From IMG/VR virus record IMGVR_UViG_3300029374_000341, positions 1 through 32,000 of that record: a DNA stretch of 32,000 nt; one strand, 5' to 3'. The translations under genes were made by a program, and so were the position numbers. The notes beneath the pieces were generated by a model. It saw nothing but the letters and a program-made list of their open reading frames with translations. It was not told the origin of the DNA and ran no database searches. Source of the stretch: a virus. Positions 1,857 through 32,000 of the stretch are shown here, one piece after another. Each line of letters starts with the position of its first letter. Positions within the stretch are counted from its first letter, which is position 1.

Positions 1857-2026
1857 AATCGTTTTGGTGACAATTTCTAGAAAGGGGAATTTTTAGCGAT
1901 TGTCACATTTTGTTGTTGTTTGCTAGTGCCACAAAGAGAAATGTTAAGATTCAATTACACGTCTGCAATTTGCACTACACCAAAGAGAGTTTAGGCCTTT
2001 ATCACTCTACTTTTCCTAGCAACATG

Positions 2027-2035
2027 ATTATATCA
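2027..2035 (-). promoter_or_regulatory. extended -10 promoter element TGATATAAT
   Basis: Perfect TGnTATAAT on the minus strand immediately downstream of the 2055-2078 hairpin. It would drive a ~190-nt structured transcript ending at the 1817-1856 terminator. Confidence 0.35.
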
Positions 2036-2054
2036 CATAAATGCATAAGCCACT

Positions 2055-2078
2055 AAAAAAGCCCTGATAAACAGAGCT
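2055..2078 (-). terminator. rho-independent terminator (minus strand)
   Basis: Minus strand AGCTCTG-TTTAT-CAGGGCT (7 bp including one G.U) followed by TTTTTT. Confidence 0.45.
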
Positions 2079-2122
2079 ACCCTAGATTAATATCAAATTT
2101 ATATTAACCTTAAACCTATTAA

Positions 2123-2131
2123 ATTATAGCA
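2123..2131 (-). promoter_or_regulatory. extended -10 promoter element TGCTATAAT
   Basis: Perfect TGnTATAAT on the minus strand. It is part of the 16-nt direct repeat AATTATAGCATAAAAA shared with 2341-2356. Confidence 0.35.
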
Positions 2132-2342
2132 TAAAAATGCAAAAACAACTAAACAACTAAATGCCTAGTGGTTTCGTTTCTCCTTATACCTAATAAATGG
2201 TATACGAGATAATGGCATAAACCGCATAGATACATACGATTTAAGGTGCTCCTTGTACATTAGTACATGAGCTACTCTTTAGCTAGCTAAAAAAAACACA
2301 CACGGTTAACGTATAATTCTCGTGTACCAATGGTCTGACTTA

Positions 2343-2351
2343 ATTATAGCA
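2343..2351 (-). promoter_or_regulatory. extended -10 promoter element TGCTATAAT
   Basis: Perfect TGnTATAAT on the minus strand directly after the T-run of the 2353-2384 terminator. Confidence 0.35.
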
Positions 2352-2352
2352 T

Positions 2353-2384
2353 AAAAAAAGAGCCTATGAACTTAATCATAGGCT
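2353..2384 (-). terminator. rho-independent terminator closing the prophage lysis/late operon
   Basis: Minus strand AGCCTATGA-TTAAGT-TCATAGGCT (perfect 9-bp stem), then C and TTTTTTT. It lies ~130 nt downstream of the endolysin stop. Confidence 0.75.
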
Positions 2385-2511
2385 AAAAATATACGAAAAA
2401 TAGTTGAAGGATTTGTGTCATTTTTTAAATTATGACACTTTTTTTGATATTTAATTGTAATTTTTGCACATTTTGTACAATTTCGACGTTTTTATGTTCA
2501 CATTTGCATTT

Positions 2512-3615
2512 TTATGCAATTTCTGTTAATGGTGTTGGGTCAACCCAAATGCCGCCAATTTTAACGATGTTCTTTTGAACATTAACCGCATCGACTCTGA
2601 TTCGAGATACATAGACTACTGCATTTGTAGTATGCAATACATTGTCATTATATCCATCTGAATTTGGTACTTTATCGACTAAGCGAATTGGAAACCAACC
2701 ACCTAATTGTGATAGGTATGCACATAAATCATCACCAATCTTCTTTAAGCCTTGATTGCCGATTTTCATATGTACAGATGTCACATAACTGCCTTCATGC
2801 AAAATTTGGTCGATAGCTTCTGCATTAGATTGTGTAGCACCTACTGGCACGTGAGGGTCTGTATCAATACCCCCATCATTTGTCCATCCAATCGCTACCC
2901 CATTACGATCAATACGATATGGATATTTAGCACCTTTAATAACTCTACCAATTGAACCGTTCCAATCTCCTTTTAAGATTTTAGAAGTTCCGTAGCAGTT
3001 AACGCTTAATGTATTTGTGCAGATAGGTGTACCGACTGAATACTTTTCACCACTTGGAGCGCTTGGAACACTTGGAACACTTGGTTGTGTTGGTGCTACA
3101 GTTTGACCATCCAATCTAGCATTTACTTCTTGTGCTAATTGAGGCATTTTCGAATGTAAATAAGGACCTGGGCAAGATGTTGCTGCGAACATTCTATGTT
3201 CTGTCAAGCTACCAGTTGAATCACCAGTGTAGTTTAATCTGAATCCATATCGTTTACATACATCAACACATAAATTTACCAATGCATTCCATGCTTTTGG
3301 TGAGATTGTCCATGTATCTGTATTATCATTAGCAATTTCAATTGTAACTGATTGGCAATCATTGTAGTAGTTTGATGATGTCCACGCTCTATTTTCTTCA
3401 TCGACATTAGCTACAATCGTACCGTCTGAACCAATGCAATAGTTTGCACTAGCCATTCTTCCGCTTACTTGGAATGACTGAGCACATCGTTCTGCCGACC
3501 ACGTGCATGCCATATGGTGAGGTGTAATTTTACAAACTTTATAACCACCTCTACCACGCATATAGTTATCTGCACTAGCAGGAATATATTTATTAGTTAA
3601 GCTTGAGTAAGACAT
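2512..3615 (-). CDS. endolysin: N-acetylmuramoyl-L-alanine amidase (Amidase_2/PGRP type) with C-terminal cell-wall-binding region
   Basis: 367 aa. The N-terminal domain has HHMA...SANYCIG.DG...AWTS...SVTIEIAN...EHRMFAATSCPG, as in Amidase_2. A Pro/Ser linker (PTQPSVPSVPSAPSG) precedes a ~190-aa C-terminal domain. It is the last gene after the holin. Confidence 0.9.
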   Translation of the reverse strand: MSYSSLTNKYIPASADNYMRGRGGYKVCKITPHHMACTWSAERCAQSFQVSGRMASANYCIGSDGTIVANVDEENRAWTSSNYYNDCQSVTIEIANDNTDTWTISPKAWNALVNLCVDVCKRYGFRLNYTGDSTGSLTEHRMFAATSCPGPYLHSKMPQLAQEVNARLDGQTVAPTQPSVPSVPSAPSGEKYSVGTPICTNTLSVNCYGTSKILKGDWNGSIGRVIKGAKYPYRIDRNGVAIGWTNDGGIDTDPHVPVGATQSNAEAIDQILHEGSYVTSVHMKIGNQGLKKIGDDLCAYLSQLGGWFPIRLVDKVPNSDGYNDNVLHTTNAVVYVSRIRVDAVNVQKNIVKIGGIWVDPTPLTEIA

Positions 3616-3701
3616 TCTTCTTCACCTTCTTCTTTACCATTACTCAATTCTGTTTGAGCTTCTTCTGATAGTTCTTCAAATTTTACTTCTTTTTCTTCCA
3701 T
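3597..3701 (-). CDS. small acidic ORF (34 aa) between the lysis genes
   Basis: Below the ORF-track cutoff. AGGAGG SD 9 nt upstream of the ATG at 3701. MEEKEVKFEELSEEAQTELSNGKEEGEEECLTQA*. The 3' end overlaps the endolysin start. Confidence 0.35.
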   Translation of the reverse strand: MEEKEVKFEELSEEAQTELSNGKEEGEEECLTQA

Positions 3702-3713
3702 GATTCTGTCCTC

Positions 3714-4109
3714 CTAATTCTTCTCGACTAAAAAGTCCTGGATTTCCTTTCGTGTAGCCTTTAGGCTTTCTTTATCATCTTCCGATAACATTCCATCGAG
3801 GATGGCCATGTTCGCCTTTAACATCAGATCGCCTCGCTTCTTGTCCTCTTCCAACCGATCATCATGATCTGATAGGATGCGAGTATGTTCTTCTAATTTG
3901 CGATTGATACCTTCCTGATTCAAGGTTATCTTTTCAAGCGAATTCAATCGTTCGTTATCTCGATGCAATAATTCTGTATGTCTCTTCACCGTTTCTTTAA
4001 GATCATCACTCGGCTTTTTTAGCTCCTTGATAATCTTAATAGTGGCCCAGACAAGACCAATAAAAGTAAGACACCAGACAATCTGTTCACTAGTAATCAC
4101 AAAGTTCAT
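3714..4109 (-). CDS. membrane-anchored coiled-coil protein of the lysis cassette (function unknown)
   Basis: N-terminal TM (IVWCLTFIGLVWATIKII) followed by a charged helical region. I prefer the ATG at 4109 (GAGGG 9 nt upstream) over the track's GTG at 4124. Confidence 0.6.
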   Translation of the reverse strand: MNFVITSEQIVWCLTFIGLVWATIKIIKELKKPSDDLKETVKRHTELLHRDNERLNSLEKITLNQEGINRKLEEHTRILSDHDDRLEEDKKRGDLMLKANMAILDGMLSEDDKESLKATRKEIQDFLVEKN

Positions 4110-4120
4110 TACCAGCGCCC

Positions 4121-4360
4121 TCACTGATTTTCTTTCGTTTCTTCATCTTCAGTATAGGGTGTCTCTACTTCTGGTAATCCGGCTAAGGATGTCAATAATG
4201 ACAAAATTCCAGCCAAAGCAGTGCTTGATACTACAACTTTAAGATCCACTTGTTCCATCATTTGTGACGTTCCAATCATTGCGATTGCAGTCTGACACAT
4301 TGTTTTTAAGCAGCGTGTGCATGCTGCACTCCACCATTTAGCATTTTTCAATTGTTCCAT
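4121..4360 (-). CDS. holin, r1t-like family
   Basis: 79 aa. RCLKTMCQTAIAMIGT...VDLKVVVSSTALAGILSLLTSLAGLPE matches the r1t-holin pattern (R.lKTfaQtaig..g....vdw...l.vs..a.v.SlLTSlag.P). Acidic C-tail. Located upstream of the endolysin. Confidence 0.8.
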   Translation of the reverse strand: MEQLKNAKWWSAACTRCLKTMCQTAIAMIGTSQMMEQVDLKVVVSSTALAGILSLLTSLAGLPEVETPYTEDEETKENQ

Positions 4361-4940: not shown

Positions 4941-5834
4941 ATGCTATATTCAGAAAAATTAACATCTTGGTTAAAAGAAAAGAAAATCTATCTAAAATAC
5001 AGCACTTACACAAATTATTGTAATGTGATCCACAATCACATCATGCCAAAACTAGGCAATTATCAGATTGAAGATTTGAACAACGATATTCTGCAGGAGT
5101 TTATTCTTCAAAAACTTGAAAATGGTCGTAAAGATGGAAAAGGTGGCATATCATTCAAATATGCCAAAGACATTATTCAAATTCTTAAATTTACGCTTCC
5201 ATTCAAAGTCGATGTTCAGTTACCTTACCATCCTCCTAAGGCGGTTGAGATTTTTGAAAAAGAACATCAAATTTCATTGATTAATCACCTCCAATCTGAG
5301 ATCAACTGTAAAAACTTTGGAATACTTTTATGCATCCACACCGGAATACGCATAGGTGAACTATGCGCTTTGAAATGGTCTGATATAAATGTACAGACCA
5401 AACTTTTAAAAATCGACAAAACCATGATACGAACATACACAAAAGAAGACGGTAGTCATCTTTCAATAACACCGTCTAAATCACGTTCTAGCACTCGTAT
5501 GATTCCGTTGAACACTTGGATAATGCATTACGCAATACTGCTTCAAGGTGATGCAGACAACTATGTGTTAACGAATCGAGATAAACCAATAGAACCTAAT
5601 AAATATAGGCTTTACTACAACCGAATATTGAAAGAACTTGAACTCCCACATCGTAAATTCCACGCGCTCCGACACACATTTGCAACTAGATGTATAGAAT
5701 GTGGATGTGACTATAAATCATTGAGTGAATTGCTTGGACATTCAAACGTATCAATTACCATGAATATATATGTACATCCGCAAATGGAGTTAAAACGAAA
5801 ATGTGTAGAATTGCTTTGTGATTACTATAAGTAA
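4941..5834 (+). CDS. tyrosine recombinase (Xer/phage-integrase family), predicted tail-fibre shufflon invertase
   Basis: 297 aa and the only long plus-strand gene in the prophage. GAGG RBS. Catalytic blocks are visible: HTGIRIGEL (Arg I), FHALRHTFAT (H-x-x-R), LLGHSNVSITMNIYVH (His II / Tyr). The stop at 5832-5834 lies 2 nt before crossover core A. Confidence 0.85.
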   Translation: MLYSEKLTSWLKEKKIYLKYSTYTNYCNVIHNHIMPKLGNYQIEDLNNDILQEFILQKLENGRKDGKGGISFKYAKDIIQILKFTLPFKVDVQLPYHPPKAVEIFEKEHQISLINHLQSEINCKNFGILLCIHTGIRIGELCALKWSDINVQTKLLKIDKTMIRTYTKEDGSHLSITPSKSRSSTRMIPLNTWIMHYAILLQGDADNYVLTNRDKPIEPNKYRLYYNRILKELELPHRKFHALRHTFATRCIECGCDYKSLSELLGHSNVSITMNIYVHPQMELKRKCVELLCDYYK

Positions 5835-23503: not shown

Positions 23504-24851
23504 CGTTTTGTGAATCCTCATTATTTTGGAAGATTCGGTTTTCAGTTTCTACCATATCATTCTCATCTTCCTTTTTGATACGTTCCAATTCGGCATTCGT
23601 ATCTTCAACTGCCGAGATAAATGACAATTGGGTTTCGTGAGACACGATTCCTGATAATTGTGCAGCAGTCTGTGCTTCTTCTAATAAGTTTGCAGGATAA
23701 TTTTGTGTAAACTTGTATTCAACCTCAAGCCAGTCGTCTTCAGAACGATGTGTGATCGCATTACTAAATAAGACTCGATATCTACGATTCATTCCAGACG
23801 TGAACTTTCGCTCTTTCGCTTTTGCCAGGTTTGACATAGAAAGAAGTTTATATCTCAATGCAATTCCTGATGACGTTCCAAAGTTCTCATCATTGATATT
23901 GGCCACCATTGAGTTTTGGAAGATTAAGCGTTCTAATCTGTTGATCAGATTTTCCTGTGTTGCATCTGCATTTGGCTTTGACATGAAATCAACTACAATT
24001 CCATCACCACTTCCATCCATTGACTCAAAGTTAATTGTTCGATTATCACGAATGTGTACTAAATCAGACTCTTCTAATTTTGGGCCTAAGATTTTTAAAT
24101 AGGCATCAGCAAAATAATCAACATCATTTGCTTTTTCTGACATTGCCTTATTATAAGCATTAATCAAACTGTATGTTGATTCAAAAATAGACATACGTTC
24201 TTCATTCTCAATAAATTCAGTGGCCGGAATATCATTGAATCCATGCTCTACGCCATTAAATACATGAAGGCCACCTTTATCGTTGAACTCATACTTATAT
24301 GTTTTGTCGTAGATATATCCACGCATAACCTCGTCTACAATCTGATATGTTACAAAATATCTAGGTTTCTGAACTGTTGATTCATCATAAACCATGAAGC
24401 CTTCTCTTGGATCTAAATAGGTAATCCCTAGATTTCCATAATCATCATTGAAATACAATTCATATCCTTTTCCAAAAACACTACAAATCTTAGATAGTTC
24501 TGCATTGTTGTCGTCTTGGTCATTGTATTTATCTAGCAAGTTGATATAATCATCAATTTCTTTTTTCTTTGATGAGACTTTGATTGGAACACCAATAAAA
24601 AAACCGTTGAATGTATCAACAATGTATTTTGCAAAGTTGACCACAACACGGTTATCGGGTTTATAGGCTTCTTTGTTGGCTTGATGCAAGATTGGATAAT
24701 CACCAATATAGGCATCAAATAGCTTTTTATATCTGTTTGTGATTAACGATTTATGCTTTGTTATCAATCCATTCAACACTTCAATGTCAAGGATATCTTT
24801 ATCATCAGATAGCTTAAATATCGTATCCGGTTTAATAATGTATGCGTTCAT
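23493..24851 (-). CDS. portal protein, SPP1 gp6 family
   Basis: 452 aa directly after TerL (TAATG overlap). Size, acidic C-tail and position are typical of SPP1-type portals. Confidence 0.88.
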   Translation of the reverse strand: MNAYIIKPDTIFKLSDDKDILDIEVLNGLITKHKSLITNRYKKLFDAYIGDYPILHQANKEAYKPDNRVVVNFAKYIVDTFNGFFIGVPIKVSSKKKEIDDYINLLDKYNDQDDNNAELSKICSVFGKGYELYFNDDYGNLGITYLDPREGFMVYDESTVQKPRYFVTYQIVDEVMRGYIYDKTYKYEFNDKGGLHVFNGVEHGFNDIPATEFIENEERMSIFESTYSLINAYNKAMSEKANDVDYFADAYLKILGPKLEESDLVHIRDNRTINFESMDGSGDGIVVDFMSKPNADATQENLINRLERLIFQNSMVANINDENFGTSSGIALRYKLLSMSNLAKAKERKFTSGMNRRYRVLFSNAITHRSEDDWLEVEYKFTQNYPANLLEEAQTAAQLSGIVSHETQLSFISAVEDTNAELERIKKEDENDMVETENRIFQNNEDSQNDEQ

Positions 24852-25593
24852 TAAAGTCCTCCTTTAAATGTTCTTACTTTAACTCGACCAAATGCATATT
24901 TTTCAACTGCATAACGCATCGAGTCCATTAAGTGGTTAAAATCATCAATTGGGCGGTTAATTTTGTTGCCCAATCTATCTTCATCCCATGTGTAGTTTCC
25001 TATTTCAGTTATGAAATTAACACATCTAGGATGAATGATAATTTCGAAATCTTGAATATACTGAATTCCATGTGTAATGGAATCCTTTCCCTTTTGTGAC
25101 TTTTCAACACGAAGACCATACCCCCTAAGTTCATCAATTGACTTAGGTTCTGCACAGTCTGCCGTGAAAGACTTCTTTTGATAATGTGAGCTTTCAATCT
25201 CTTCATAAAGCCTTTTATTAGAAAGGCCTTTTTTATAAATTTCATCCCAAACATAGAGTTTCTTATGTTCTGTATCAATGAAACCTATAAAAACTGCAGC
25301 AGGATCATTTGTATAACCGAAGTCAATACCATTTACAGATTCACAGTCAATAACCTGATCTAGTGTGAATTCTTCCTCTTTCCAATTCTCATAAACCAAT
25401 CCATCAACAATACCCCAATTTCCTAATCCAGCAACTTGATATCGTCTAGGATTGTTCTTCTTCATGTTTTCAAACAACCTTAAATCGGCATCATCCAACC
25501 ATTCATTACACTTATAATTGGTTGTGATAGCCAATATATCAGGGTCATTCTCTGCATCAAAGAAACGTTTTTTAAGCCAATGGTGTTCGTTCC
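24851..25593 (-). CDS. terL: terminase large subunit, exon 2 (nuclease half)
   Basis: The frame continues ...(W)NEHHWLKKRFFDAENDPDILAITTNYKCNEWL... There is no SD before the track's ATG at 25606. It joins in frame to exon 1 at the predicted splice sites. Confidence 0.8.
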
Positions 25594-26509
25594 CATTTGT
25601 GTTCATGTAAGGTCGTTAATCTTACACCGCTTTCGCAGCTCATTGTTACCAATGAGATCAGACTATATCACCATCTTGAATTTTCAAGATGCCCCCCATT
25701 TCCGCTCACTTGAGCGTACTCCATTAAAAAAACCGCATTAACTGCGGTTAGGATAGTCGTTAAACTTTTTTTATTTTCATTCCGTTAATAACACATTCGT
25801 TTGATTTAGATAATTTATTTATTAATTTAGTTGATAAATTATATCTCTTTTGTAATTGATATCCGCTTATAAATACTTCACCTGTTGTCTCGTTTATATA
25901 CTTTCCAGTTAGTTCGATTTCTATAAGCTCTCCAGATTCAACCATTTTATAAACCTTATGCCTTGTAACACCTAAACAATCAGCAGCTTCTCTCATTGAT
26001 GAAAAACATTGTTTTCCATCTGGTGTAGAAACTGGCTTTCTTATTGAATTGTTTAGATCTTCTTTTTGTTCACCAGTCCATACATTTGCTATGGTCTTTT
26101 TGTGCTTTTCTGTATAAGCGATTTCTTTATCTATTGCATCTTTTTTTGTGCTTGCAGTATCAACGATTGCTATTTCAACATCTTTGAACAATTCAAGATT
26201 GTTTGCAATCATGTATTTATGTATTGGCTGTTGACGTGTTTTATCTCTAAAGCCTCTTCTATGCTCATTGATACGAGCACCGATTGTCCGTGTGCTTCCT
26301 ACATAAATAATCTTTTGTGTTTTAATTTCTCTAAATAGATATATGTAATAAAATGGTGTTTGTTTCATATCTATATTTTACCATTATATTCCATTCCAAG
26401 CAACAAACGAAAATAAAACTTAGCTTTTGATTGCCCTCTCTTTCGAGTAGGGTTTTCCAAAAATTAAAGGGGTTTTCATATAAAATCACTTTTATATGCC
26501 GCAAAATCT
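25594..26509 (-). mobile_element. putative group I intron (about 916 nt) carrying a GIY-YIG homing endonuclease ORF
   Basis: It interrupts the terL frame precisely. Exon CCGU pairs with intron GCGG, giving a U.G wobble at the 5' splice site, and the last intron nucleotide is G. Hairpins are dense on both sides of the HEG ORF, several with GNRA loops. Confidence 0.7.
25760..26368 (-). CDS. GIY-YIG homing endonuclease (I-TevI-like architecture)
   Basis: 202 aa. FYYIYLFRE...IIYVGSTRTIGARINEHRR carries the GIY / YIG / R..E motifs. C-terminal HTH-like segments (REAADCLGVTRHKVYKMV; YQLQKRYNLSTKLINKL). Confidence 0.85.
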   Translation of the reverse strand: MKQTPFYYIYLFREIKTQKIIYVGSTRTIGARINEHRRGFRDKTRQQPIHKYMIANNLELFKDVEIAIVDTASTKKDAIDKEIAYTEKHKKTIANVWTGEQKEDLNNSIRKPVSTPDGKQCFSSMREAADCLGVTRHKVYKMVESGELIEIELTGKYINETTGEVFISGYQLQKRYNLSTKLINKLSKSNECVINGMKIKKV

Positions 26510-27023
26510 ACGGGTTGAATGTAATCATCCACTGTTTCCAAAGATAAGGCGGTAACTCACCACGAATCGACTCATCCAATGTATCAAAGTCTTTTTCGCT
26601 CGTTATTTCATAAGCTTCTTCGAGCCATACCCAACATAGAAACCCATAATCTACAGTAATAGATGTTATTTTTAACGGATCATCAAGCCCTCTAAAGAGA
26701 ATCTTCTGCCCAGTTGGAAGATATGTTGCCTCCAAAGGCGAATATTTAAATTCCCATAAGTGTTCAACCTCTAATCTTCTTGTTGCCCATTTTAAATCCG
26801 TGAAGCACGAATCTTTAAGTGTTCGATAAGTCTTACGAACTACCAATGTATTCGACTTATCATACTTCATCATGTTGTAGATAATTCGCAATGCAGTTGT
26901 TTTTGACTTCTTAGAAGCACGAGAACCTTTGCATGCTGCATAACGTCCCCTGAAGTTCCAATAGGATTTATATCCTTTTCCAACTATTTTAGGTAAATTG
27001 ATAGATTTAGTCTTCAAGCTCAT
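26510..27023 (-). CDS. terL: terminase large subunit, exon 1 (ATPase half, PBSX/Terminase_3 type)
   Basis: From the ATG at 27023 (AAGGAG upstream). Walker-A-like CKGSRASKKSKT, then ...WVWLEEAYEI...LWKQWMITFNP, with a TAG immediately after the predicted 5' splice site. Confidence 0.8.
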
Positions 27024-27504
27024 CCTCTCCTTCAAACTTAGGTACTACGATTTCTGATTGAACTTTATCTGTAAACAGTGAATATCTTTTTCCAAGTAAT
27101 TCTGCAGCTTTATTTGCATCAGAAAGCTTTGCAGGAATCTCAACAATTTGAGGAACTTCTTCTTTGACTGTTTTCTTTCTCGGCTTTCCATCTCCTGTAT
27201 CGACATACTCTGAGCGTTCTTTTGTCACTGTAACAACAACAGATTCCTTCATTTCTCGTCGCATTACTTTTGTGAGGTATTCCATGACTTCTTGAACATC
27301 TGCTATCTTTCCCGAACTGACTTTTTCAAGTTGTTCATCAATATAAGCTTTGACCTTAACATTTCTTAACAATCTTGAAGCAGCAGACATTGCAGCACCA
27401 TCTGACTTTACATGAGGATACGCAACTTTATATGCCCTTGTTGCATTCAGATCAATCAAATACTCGTCTACAAATATTTTCTGCTTTTCAGTCAACTTAG
27501 CCAT
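27007..27504 (-). CDS. terS: terminase small subunit (Terminase_2 / P27 family)
   Basis: 165 aa. MAKLTEKQKIFVDEYLIDLNATRAYKVAYPHVKSDGAAMSAASRLLRNVKVKAYI is the classic N-terminal HTH region of this family. Confidence 0.9.
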   Translation of the reverse strand: MAKLTEKQKIFVDEYLIDLNATRAYKVAYPHVKSDGAAMSAASRLLRNVKVKAYIDEQLEKVSSGKIADVQEVMEYLTKVMRREMKESVVVTVTKERSEYVDTGDGKPRKKTVKEEVPQIVEIPAKLSDANKAAELLGKRYSLFTDKVQSEIVVPKFEGEDELED

Positions 27505-27584: not shown

Positions 27585-27926
27585 CTAACCCACAATTGAT
27601 CTACTTCTATAGATATTCCATACTTTCATAGCTCTAGGCATATCCATGTAAAGAGAAAAATCTGGTGTAAGAACACAGTCATACTGTTTTAAGACATTCA
27701 CATATCGTTCGGGAGTGTTCCAAATGCGCTCAAACTGATAATCATCAATAAACATATGAATTCCAGATTGATAATTCTTTGAAGAGATTGCTTCATTGAA
27801 TCCAATTAACTCATTAGGAATATGAAGTGTCTTTTTAATAACAGGCATTTCAAATGGGCCATCTGTTTCAAATGGATCATATAAATCTAGATTGTATTTT
27901 TTGATTGTTAGTTCTCTTCCTGGCAT
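27585..27926 (-). CDS. DUF4417-like protein, apparently truncated
   Basis: 113 aa from the ATG at 27926 (AAGGAGG SD). GIHMFIDDYQFERIWNTPERYVNVLKQYDCVLTPDFSLYMDMPRAMKVWNIYRSRSIVG* matches the N-terminal half of DUF4417. As I recall, family members are roughly twice as long. Confidence 0.55.
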   Translation of the reverse strand: MPGRELTIKKYNLDLYDPFETDGPFEMPVIKKTLHIPNELIGFNEAISSKNYQSGIHMFIDDYQFERIWNTPERYVNVLKQYDCVLTPDFSLYMDMPRAMKVWNIYRSRSIVG

Positions 27927-27947
27927 GGAGCACCTCCTTTCTTGCAT

Positions 27948-30445: not shown

Positions 30446-30943
30446 CTAGTACCCCTTCACTAATCTTTCTTTATTGATCTCATTCTTGCGAATATATTCG
30501 TTGTAGATTTCCCCAAACGAATATCCTAAATGCAATCCTAATGCGATTACGTAAGCTAATACGTTATCATCTCGTGTTAAACTGATTACACAACTAAATG
30601 CATATGCCTGTCCAAATCCTAAATCAGTTTTTAACTTGTTATAATTCCGCTTAATGTCCTCGTCTTGATAACATCCTGTACCGAACTTGATTTCGTACAT
30701 TAATGCGAAATGCACAACATCAATGTATTCTTCAAATACTTTGGCAGGGTCTTTTTCTTCTTGAGTGAACTTCCACCAACACCAATCCGATTTTTGAGCG
30801 TGCATCAATTCTCCTAATTCATCAAACAATGCACTTTCTAATTGGCTTTTAGAAACATAGTCAACATTATGTTTCTTAAATACTTCCGTATCATATGCTT
30901 TCTGTCTTTCAAGCATATCTTTAATCATTTCTGTACTTGTCAT
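30446..30943 (-). CDS. dimeric (all-alpha) dUTPase / dUTPase_2 family
   Basis: 165 aa. ALFDELGELMHAQKSDWCWWKF...EEYIDVVHFALMYEI...IYNEYIRKNEINKERLVKGY follows the dimeric dUTPase pattern. AAGGAG SD. Confidence 0.75.
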   Translation of the reverse strand: MTSTEMIKDMLERQKAYDTEVFKKHNVDYVSKSQLESALFDELGELMHAQKSDWCWWKFTQEEKDPAKVFEEYIDVVHFALMYEIKFGTGCYQDEDIKRNYNKLKTDLGFGQAYAFSCVISLTRDDNVLAYVIALGLHLGYSFGEIYNEYIRKNEINKERLVKGY

Positions 30944-31290: not shown

Positions 31291-32000
31291 TTAAAATAAT
31301 TGTGTTTCTACGTTGGACAACATCTTTTCTTTTGCTTCGTTATAAAAGTTCTTTTTAATTTCAAATCCATAACAACTTCTTTTTAATTCCGCACAAGCTC
31401 TAAGTGTTGAACAACTGCCAGCTACCGGATCAATAACTACGTCTCCTTCGTCCGTATAAATCTCAATCAACTGTTTCAACAGATTTACTGGCTTTTGCGT
31501 TGGATGAATCTTCGGTATGTCTTTTCCATCACGTTCAAATTCAAACCAATCTTTAATCATTTTTCCAGTTCCTTTAATCGGTTTTCCATCTTCTCCAATT
31601 TGTCTACCATTTCTAAATTTTGGTAGCTTATCTCGCCACAACACTAAAGCGCATTCAGTAGCACCTACAATTCGCATATTTGCTTTAAGCACTTGTGATG
31701 ATGATTTCTTTACAAAGAACAATGGTTGCGTATGTTTGAAACCAAATTGTTTTGAATATTCAGTAATCTCATTCAACTGTTGCCATGAACAAAATATAAT
31801 CATACATGGTGCTTGTCCTTTTTCTTTAGGCTCTTTTTTTAATAATCGAGTACAAAAATTGAAAAAATTATAGATTTTAAAATCATTGTCAGTATCAAAA
31901 AATTCACTATTAGCTTTCTTTGATTCTCCATTTTTATTGTCCCCCCCCACGTACCAATCACTTCTGCTACCATATGCATTTTTACCAATGTTATACGGTA
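31291..32000 (-). CDS. DNA methyltransferase (N6_N4_Mtase family, DPPY type), 5' end outside the window
   Basis: The frame is open to the window edge and reads ...PYNIGKNAYGSRSDWYVGGDNKNG... (end of the DPPY motif IV). The C-terminal part has HPTQKPVNLLKQLIEIYTDEGDVVIDPVAGSCSTLRACAELKRSCYGFEI (motif I region). Confidence 0.85.
   Translation of the reverse strand, partial: PYNIGKNAYGSRSDWYVGGDNKNGESKKANSEFFDTDNDFKIYNFFNFCTRLLKKEPKEKGQAPCMIIFCSWQQLNEITEYSKQFGFKHTQPLFFVKKSSSQVLKANMRIVGATECALVLWRDKLPKFRNGRQIGEDGKPIKGTGKMIKDWFEFERDGKDIPKIHPTQKPVNLLKQLIEIYTDEGDVVIDPVAGSCSTLRACAELKRSCYGFEIKKNFYNEAKEKMLSNVETQLF
31941..31948 (-). repeat. G8 homopolymer inside the methyltransferase coding sequence
   Basis: CCCCCCCC on plus, giving GTG GGG GGG GAC (V G G D) on the coding strand. 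It is the longest G/C run I noticed in this AT-rich window. Confidence 0.9.

Follow-up and report, generated by a model that had tools for sequence, protein, structure and literature searches.

The 32,000-nucleotide (nt) window analysed here, positions 1-32,000 of the IMG/VR virus record IMGVR_UViG_3300029374_000341, contains a terminase large subunit gene (terL, encoding TerL) interrupted by what we read as a group I intron with a GIY-YIG homing endonuclease gene inside it. The terminase small subunit gene (terS), both exons of terL, the intron and the endonuclease open reading frame (ORF) all lie on the minus strand. terS (27504..27007; Pfam Terminase_2, E = 6e-35) overlaps the start of terL, whose first exon (27023..26510) opens with the ATG at 27023 and contributes the ATPase part of the protein, namely 171 codons and the first base of a tryptophan codon (Pfam Terminase_3 positions 4-137). 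Its translation reaches ...LWKQWMITFNP at 26511 and then meets the TAG at 26510-26508, which is where a first-pass annotation, made from the sequence alone, had placed the end of an ATPase half. All features named in that annotation were recovered at the coordinates it gave, correct to the single base. The TerL reading frame picks up at 25593 with ...NEHHWLKKRFFD..., and this second exon (25593..24851) encodes the end of the ATPase together with an RNaseH-like nuclease domain (Pfam Terminase_3 positions 139-200 and Terminase_3C). The Terminase_3 profile is broken at 137|139, with exactly one residue absent at the break.

Joining U26510 to G25593, as the first-pass annotation had proposed, restores a TGG codon and gives exons of 514 + 743 = 1257 nt that encode a TerL of 418 amino acids (aa). 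Compared with the DNA of an intron-less allele, L001, the joined exons align without a gap over all 1257 nt at 94.8% identity; because this alignment is gapless, the length of the insert is fixed at exactly 916 nt (26509..25594), lying between the first and second bases of the tryptophan codon. At the protein level, the best 120 of thousands of TerL relatives are uninterrupted, 416-418 aa long and 95-98% identical to the joined protein, and all 120 read WMITFNPWNEHHWLKKR (TFNPWNEHH) across the junction, so that the alignment to intact TerL proteins suggested at first pass comes out in favour of the join. The predicted ligated RNA junction is AACCCGU|GGAACGAAC, and the predicted junction-spanning peptide of the joined TerL is ...TFNPWNEHHWLK.... 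In unspliced RNA, U26510 and the AG that begins the intron form an in-frame UAG stop codon.

The same arrangement could be taken for a TerL made as two polypeptides, ATPase and nuclease, that assemble after translation, with a free-standing endonuclease gene between them and no splicing. Annotation pipelines do call three separate genes here, and an in-frame ATG at 25606, upstream of exon 2, could start the second fragment. We considered separate translation of exon 2 from this ATG and rejected it: no Shine-Dalgarno sequence precedes 25606, in keeping with what the first-pass annotation had remarked about the second half of TerL, and the ATG is not conserved, L153 having none. Further, the interruption divides a single codon as well as the ATPase domain, the noncoding RNA flanking the ORF is a covarying group I ribozyme (below), and alleles that lack the ORF still keep a 302-nt ribozyme, which simple insertion of a gene leaves unexplained. 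On this evidence we give assembly from two polypeptides next to no credence.

An Rfam scan of the whole window at gathering thresholds returned no match. A permissive scan of the insert recovered two partial matches to the group I family RF00028, both on the correct strand and flanking the ORF: one 5' of it with 18.8 bits over model positions 60-138 (helices P4-P6), and one 3' of it with 32 bits covering P7, P3', P8, P7' and P9. By contrast, six natural ORF-less copies of 302 nt score 88.5-98 bits over the full model (positions 1-253; gathering score 50), and their core is 98.7-100% identical to that of the window intron. The window copy stays below the gathering score because the 609-nt ORF splits its core. 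The covariance-model check proposed in the first-pass annotation therefore came out negative for the window copy and positive for its ORF-less counterparts. Over the 3' 130 nt of the intron, identity is ~72% with the 3' ends of T-even td introns, GUAAGAUUAACGACCUUA...UGAACA.AAUG included, and with those of some staphylococcal phage introns. The 17-mer GGTGATATAGTCTGATC, which runs from J8/7 to P7', is found in 68 IMG/VR viral contigs, and megablast found no match for terL plus intron in 50,697 phage records. As a separate observation, some unrelated viral contigs with the 17-mer (L058, also L005 and L069) carry two ORF-less group I introns a few hundred bases apart; those of L058 lie at 2594-2856 and 3006-3251 and score 76.6 and 115 bits.

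Endonuclease relatives at 35-71% identity, traced to their contigs (IMG/VR loci included), define ten diverged lineages whose introns are 915-1005 nt long and sit at the same terL codon, with U at the end of the 5' exon and G at the end of the intron. With the ORFs taken out, the ribozyme halves were aligned with one another, and a P1-P10 structure drawn by hand for the window intron was projected onto the alignment. The formal covariation count covers 57 pairs in 12 helices. MAFFT misaligned the length-variable P2, P7.1, inner P8 and P9.1, which were excluded from this count; P2 and P7.1 were folded lineage by lineage, and P9.1 was viewed in the column projection alone. Standard pairs occupy 97.9% of cells, as against 78.1% with shuffled columns and 40-47% with partners slid by 1-3 columns; the covariation score is 0.614, as against 0.205 for shuffled columns (0 of 500 shuffles reach 0.614) and 0.08-0.14 for slid partners; and both sides have changed in 34 of the 57 pairs. 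The pairing scheme is far beyond chance expectation.

The intron starts with AGAUUUUGCGG and ends with ...ACAAAUG, and its terminal G (G25594 in the window, as predicted at first pass) is a G in ten of ten lineages. Every helix pairs perfectly in the window copy, and the hairpins named in the first-pass annotation are all present, corresponding to P2, P5, P8, P9 and P9.1. The last bases of exon 1, CCGU (26513..26510), form the 5' strand of P1 by pairing with GCGG (26502..26499) within the internal guide sequence (26506..26499), which sets a U.G wobble at the splice site. This helix, likewise proposed from the start, is paired in 100% of cells, with an invariant U.G and one compensatory change: exon and guide read CCGU/GCGG in nine lineages and CCAU/GUGG in L166/L151, an exchange of G-C for A-U. 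The UUUU of the guide (26506..26503) could pair with GGAA of exon 2 as a weak P10. P2 (26498..26477), CAUAUAAAA-GUGA-UUUUAUAUG in the window, recurs in ten of ten lineages as a hairpin of 6-8 bp closed by a 4-nt loop, with differing sequences. The 5' strand of P3, CCCCU (26472..26468), pairs with GGGGG (25696..25692); all five pairs form in all ten lineages and three of them covary. In the P4-P5 domain (26462..26425; RF00028 positions 60-138), P4 (UUUUGG/UCAAAA) encloses P5 (CCCU(A)CUC-GAAA-GAGAGGG), with six of six P4 pairs formed in all lineages, five of them covarying, and P5 covarying as well. P6 (GC) and the 5' strand of P6a, UUUUAUUUU (26424..26410), reach across the ORF to pair with 25777..25764, and the outer P6a pairs covary in four cases of four, for example as CUUAUUG/CAAUAAG in L166 and CCUUGUAAUCA/UGAUUAUAAGG in L167. 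A local hairpin, CUAAG...CUUAG, was considered as P6 and rejected in favour of the long-range P6/P6a, since P6a covaries and the local stem does not; the conserved 3' strand of that stem coincides with a promoter-like TTGCTT box.

On the other side of the ORF, the 5' strand of P7, GACUA (25758..25754), stands directly 3' of the endonuclease stop codon and pairs with UAGUC (25665..25661), a helix that fits the RF00028 consensus. Two further hairpins lie between P7 and P3' in ten of ten lineages: P7.1 (25749..25731), which is AACCGCA-GUUAA-UGCGGUU followed by a run of U, and P7.2, CGCUC-AAGU-GAGCG (25716..25703), paired in 98% of cells with three covarying pairs. The 3' strand of P3, P8 (CAUCUUGAA-AA-UUCAAGAUG), J8/7 and the 3' strand of P7 (GAUAUAGUC) occupy 25696..25661 in the RF00028 alignment; P8 covaries among the ten lineages, and P3, P4, P5, P6a and P8 are each 97-100% paired. 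The remainder (25656..25594) comprises P9 (CUCAUUG-GUAA-CAAUGAG), P9.1 (CUGC-GAAA-GCGG), P9.2 (UGUAAG...CUUACA) and a 3' tail with the terminal G, and in all lineages P9 forms seven of seven pairs (five covarying) and P9.2 six of six (all six covarying). We place the intron in subgroup IA2 on two features: P7.1 and P7.2 both lie between P7 and P3', and the sequence is similar to td. We accordingly describe the insert, from its sequence, as a td-like (IA2) group I intron that splits TerL.

Could the window copy nevertheless be a decayed remnant that does not splice, leaving terL a pseudogene in a defective prophage? By itself this copy falls under the Rfam threshold; the element is temperate, with a tyrosine integrase gene (4941-5834, plus strand), and so could be cryptic; and decay does occur in the population, where one ORF-less allele (L068, IMG/VR 3300045988_077623) has lost the terminal G. 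The window core, however, is nearly or fully identical to that of copies scoring 88-98 bits, all of its helices pair, both exons are open and encode a protein as close to intact TerL as given above, and this copy retains the splice-site U, the terminal G and its P1 pairing. We therefore regard a decayed intron in the window as very unlikely. The L068 allele itself reads ...CACAAATA|GGAATG in place of the usual ...CACAAATG|GGAATG, with A where the intron should end in G. One nucleotide is deleted from its 5' half as well, and of the six ORF-less copies it scores lowest in Rfam (88.5 bits); either decay of the intron or an error in sequencing could account for this.

The ORF (26368..25760; 202 aa) is located in the loop of P6a and encodes a GIY-YIG domain, as had been recognised at first pass (Pfam PF01541, E = 2e-9; 38 bits, cut-off 22.6). 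The final codons of the ORF, AUG AAA AUA AAA AAA GUU UAA, also serve as the 3' strands of P6a and P6 and as J6/7, and because the end of the ORF encodes these strands, nearly every homolog down to 47% identity has the C-terminal sequence ...NGMxIxKV. Residues Y7, Y10, Y22-V-G (G24), R32, H36, E82 and N95 do not vary among 23 homologs, whose identity goes down to 35%. In an AlphaFold2 model with a confidence score (pLDDT) of 80.5, the N-terminal domain is joined by a linker of low confidence (residues 96-109) to a C-terminal domain made of helices. In Foldseek searches, the N-terminal domain matches the GIY-YIG domain of UvrC with a probability of 0.99 and a modest E value of 0.02, and the C-terminal domain gives a weak match to the DNA-binding domain of I-TevI (1i3j; probability 0.77, E = 0.94). 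The product is predicted to be a divergent GIY-YIG homing endonuclease, for which both cleavage activity and cleavage site are likewise predictions. Where the context of further diverged relatives was examined, eight of eight sit inside a split terL, and the lineage is dedicated to a single terL codon within one gut-phage family.

The same intron is present at the same terL site in ~21 IMG/VR contigs, 11 with the ORF and six in the ORF-less 302-nt form, and at least 13 uninterrupted close terL alleles are found in IMG/VR; intron-less alleles, alleles with intron and endonuclease gene, and alleles with the intron minus that gene co-circulate. Among 12 complete intron-plus alleles, mean exon identity is 0.926 (minimum 0.892), as compared with a mean of 0.9935 for the intron core (minimum 0.9865) and 0.9947 for the full 916 nt, which makes the intron ~10x less diverged than the exons. 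In their exons, intron-plus alleles differ from intron-less ones by as much as alleles of either class differ among themselves, which shows the intron to be scattered across terL diversity, and because it is so much less diverged than the exons around it, recent horizontal spread is indicated. The codon before the splice site is CCG in 16 of 16 intron-plus alleles and CCA or CCT in 15 of 15 intron-less ones (Fisher exact p ~3e-9 for the association with G at -2, relatedness ignored). This G pairs in P1, and was either co-converted with the intron or is required for an allele to tolerate it. No long co-conversion tract is visible in the allele comparison.

Alignment of the window intron with the mini-intron of L055 shows that the block absent from the ORF-less alleles is 614 nt long (26391..25778, minus strand) and has the 6-bp direct repeat GGAATG at its borders. 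ORF-less copies are likewise found in diverged alleles, with exon identities of 0.889-0.969 as against intron identities of 0.974-0.997. Because the endonuclease is present in all diverged lineages and the TTGCTT box is retained in the mini-intron, the ORF-less form is to be read as derived by deletion, and a deletion between the GGAATG repeats would most simply account for its sequence.

These data bear on whether the endonuclease is still a homing enzyme. The intron might splice while its protein is inactive or has taken on a role in RNA folding or regulation, with ordinary recombination accounting for the scatter across alleles. The missing co-conversion tract, the persistence of ORF-less copies in diverged alleles (where an endonuclease in cis is evidently dispensable), the absence of a close characterised relative, and a 6-nt leader without a Shine-Dalgarno sequence in the window and L171 lineages all fit such a scenario. 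Yet the ORF is intact in 10 other alleles, each with 3-4 nt differences that are all synonymous; the catalytic-type residues are the same throughout the 23 homologs; the gene has been kept at one terL codon across ten diverged lineages; and the low divergence of the intron relative to the exons is not readily explained by generic recombination. We consider loss of homing function unlikely, though less so than either of the two alternatives discussed above.

The P6a loop also contains a stretch that is neither coding nor ribozyme core and resembles a promoter: TTGCTT-N17-(TGG)TAAAAT (26403..26375, minus strand), a candidate promoter for the endonuclease gene suggested by its conservation. TGGTAWAAT occurs in ten of ten lineages and TTGCTT at the 17-nt spacing in eight of ten, and the candidate fits eight of 12 consensus positions. 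Eight lineages have a leader of 22-35 nt with a Shine-Dalgarno-like motif upstream of the endonuclease; the window and L171 lineages, with a leader of just 6 nt, lack such a motif, which suggests a leaderless endonuclease mRNA. The P7.1 hairpin with its U-run was matched by a terminator scan, and a stable P7.1 hairpin followed by a U-run, at -9 to -23 kcal/mol, is found in ten of ten lineages. It is conceivable that the endonuclease gene forms a self-contained transcription unit within the ribozyme, with an extended -10 promoter, a leaderless mRNA (in the window and L171 lineages) and an intrinsic terminator derived from P7.1, but we put this forward as a tentative idea whose correctness we doubt. 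If it were true, one RNA element would be both a peripheral helix of the ribozyme and the terminator of the endonuclease transcript, and expression of the packaging enzyme would have a control point where the late terL transcript reads through this terminator.

Taking the evidence together, we are highly confident that the element is a mobile td-like IA2 group I intron with a GIY-YIG endonuclease, inserted in the terL of a temperate siphovirus-type phage. The junction, the Rfam matches, the covariation, the fold and the population pattern all support the identification of a group I intron with a GIY-YIG homing endonuclease that the first-pass annotation had offered from sequence. In the mechanism we propose, a late transcript would span terS and both terL exons with the intron between them, and the intron RNA would fold into the P1-P9.2 ribozyme. 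An external guanosine would attack after U26510, held in P1 by CCGU/GCGG with its U.G wobble; the terminal G25594 would then dock and the exons would be ligated, restoring the tryptophan codon U|GG and hence the 418-aa TerL, while translation of unspliced RNA would stop at the UAG right after exon 1. The endonuclease, encoded in the P6a loop and probably transcribed from its own extended -10 promoter, would cut the intron-less terL of co-infecting or resident phages near TFNP|WNEH, and repair from an intron-containing copy would insert the intron and bring with it the adjacent exon G at -2 needed by P1. The empty, invaded and endonuclease-lost alleles of the population would then be stages of a homing cycle. 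A CNNNG motif (CAGTG) 21-25 nt upstream of the insertion resembles the I-TevI cleavage motif; we did not use it, since it is too likely to be a chance occurrence.

Several observations weigh against this interpretation, in which splicing, endonuclease activity, the cleavage site, homing and promoter use are inferred from sequence. In the RNA, the window copy scores below the RF00028 gathering value on either side of the ORF (32 and 18.8 as against 50 bits), P10 is paired in only 78.9% of cells, and P7 is invariant in all lineages, so that covariation is uninformative for this helix. Constraint on the ribozyme could partly explain why the intron is so conserved, although the ORF and loop regions are as conserved as the core. 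For the protein, a match to HTH_17 reaches 22.9 bits, under the Pfam cut-off of 27, a phmmer search against PDB sequences found nothing at E <= 1 (I-TevI structures included), and hmmscan against PHROGs assigned no family. As to expression, a sigma-70 consensus scan did not list the candidate promoter, its -10 hexamer ends 6 nt before the endonuclease ATG with no Shine-Dalgarno sequence in the window lineage, and the terminator-like P7.1 lies inside the intron upstream of exon 2, where, if it were an efficient terminator, it would cut TerL expression.

The td intron is the best-known counterpart: the ORF for its GIY-YIG endonuclease protrudes as a loop from P6a, promoters within the intron serve the endonuclease gene, and I-TevI has two domains, one catalytic and one DNA-binding. 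The window element and the T-even td/I-TevI system are alike in being IA2 group I introns with P7.1 and P7.2, and in the similarity of their 3' ends. They differ in the host gene, which is td there and terL here; in the enzyme, as the 202-aa window protein has only the GIY-YIG domain in common with I-TevI; in P7.1, which is a 3-bp stem without a U-run in td and a 7-14 bp hairpin with a U-run in the window family; and in that the end of the window ORF forms the 3' strand of P6a.

Group I introns in terL are already documented, and the window element does not alter what is known of group I introns as such. The Lactobacillus phage LL-H precedent raised at first pass is real, as far as the citation of it in PMC4299906 goes (Mikkonen & Alatossava 1995). 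Prophages of the B. cereus group carry terL introns term-IVS1/2, one with an endonuclease, which start with an in-frame stop codon (PMC2504315), as does the window intron; Streptococcus phage 2972 has a terL group I intron (PMC6356513); and terL group I introns are described in Bastillevirinae and Moonbeam (PMC11878797, PMC4299906), with splicing demonstrated experimentally for the Bastillevirinae intron (PMC11878797). Reviews name terminases among the typical targets of group I introns. At the level of intron class and host gene, the published examples resemble the window element in being group I, often with an endonuclease, and in the terL of Firmicute phages; they differ in that the window lineage belongs to uncultured siphovirus-type phages of the gut. 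The terL endonucleases of Bastillevirinae are of the HNH/VSR type, whereas that of the window is GIY-YIG.

The closest relative in an isolated phage is the split terL of Lactobacillus phage LBR48 (gp55, the GIY-YIG protein gp56, and gp57), whose record (L177, NC_027990.1) annotates three separate CDSs and no intron. Its GIY-YIG protein is uncharacterised and 35% identical to the window endonuclease, a sub-threshold RF00028 match (33.4 bits) lies just after the endonuclease gene, and the 3' half of the intron has GUGUAACGACUAUCGAAAG, a terminator-like P7.1 and GAGUAGAGUA in common with the window. The LBR48 intron differs in position, however, lying ~58 codons upstream, after ...FRGL, with TFNPW intact. 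Within 2022-4161 of this record, gp55 and gp57 are both annotated as 'terminase large subunit', and the frame seems to shift between the 3' splice region and the called start of gp57, pointing to a frameshift or another short interruption.

The rest of the window has the appearance of a temperate siphovirus-type element. Besides the integrase, it encodes, on the minus strand, an amidase endolysin (2512-3615), a dUTPase_2 protein (30446-30943), an N6/N4 DNA methylase (31291-31950) and a membrane protein of the Bax1-I family (774-1484), which may be host flank or phage cargo. A DUF4417 ORF (27585-27947, minus strand) encodes 120 aa matching profile positions 2-93 of 183, and its homolog in L001 has 212 aa; the version in the window may have been shortened or broken up. 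A terminator-like hairpin, GCCTTTTATTAGAAAGGC, with a T-run at 25210-25227 (plus strand) lies opposite terL exon 2 and is probably a chance match. The phage is probably one of Holdemanella or a related gut Firmicute, an assignment that comes solely from one 96%-identical TerL named Holdemanella biformis by NCBI. Scanning genome contigs with the 19-mer CCGTAGATTTTGCGGCATA gave three matches, none with intron or exon homology by blastn and thus no host information, as compared with a chance expectation of ~4 in 596 Gb on two strands.

For this phage family, the arrangement has practical consequences. Gene callers split terL into two "terminase" genes and a "GIY-YIG nuclease", both in metagenome calls and in the LBR48 GenBank record, and such split calls corrupt TerL-based phage detection and phylogeny; with the exact junction, a widespread group of human-gut phages can be annotated correctly. 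Further, three putative homing stages at one codon, together with natural compensatory changes in ten lineages, including one between exon and guide, make this group a convenient natural system for studying how introns spread.

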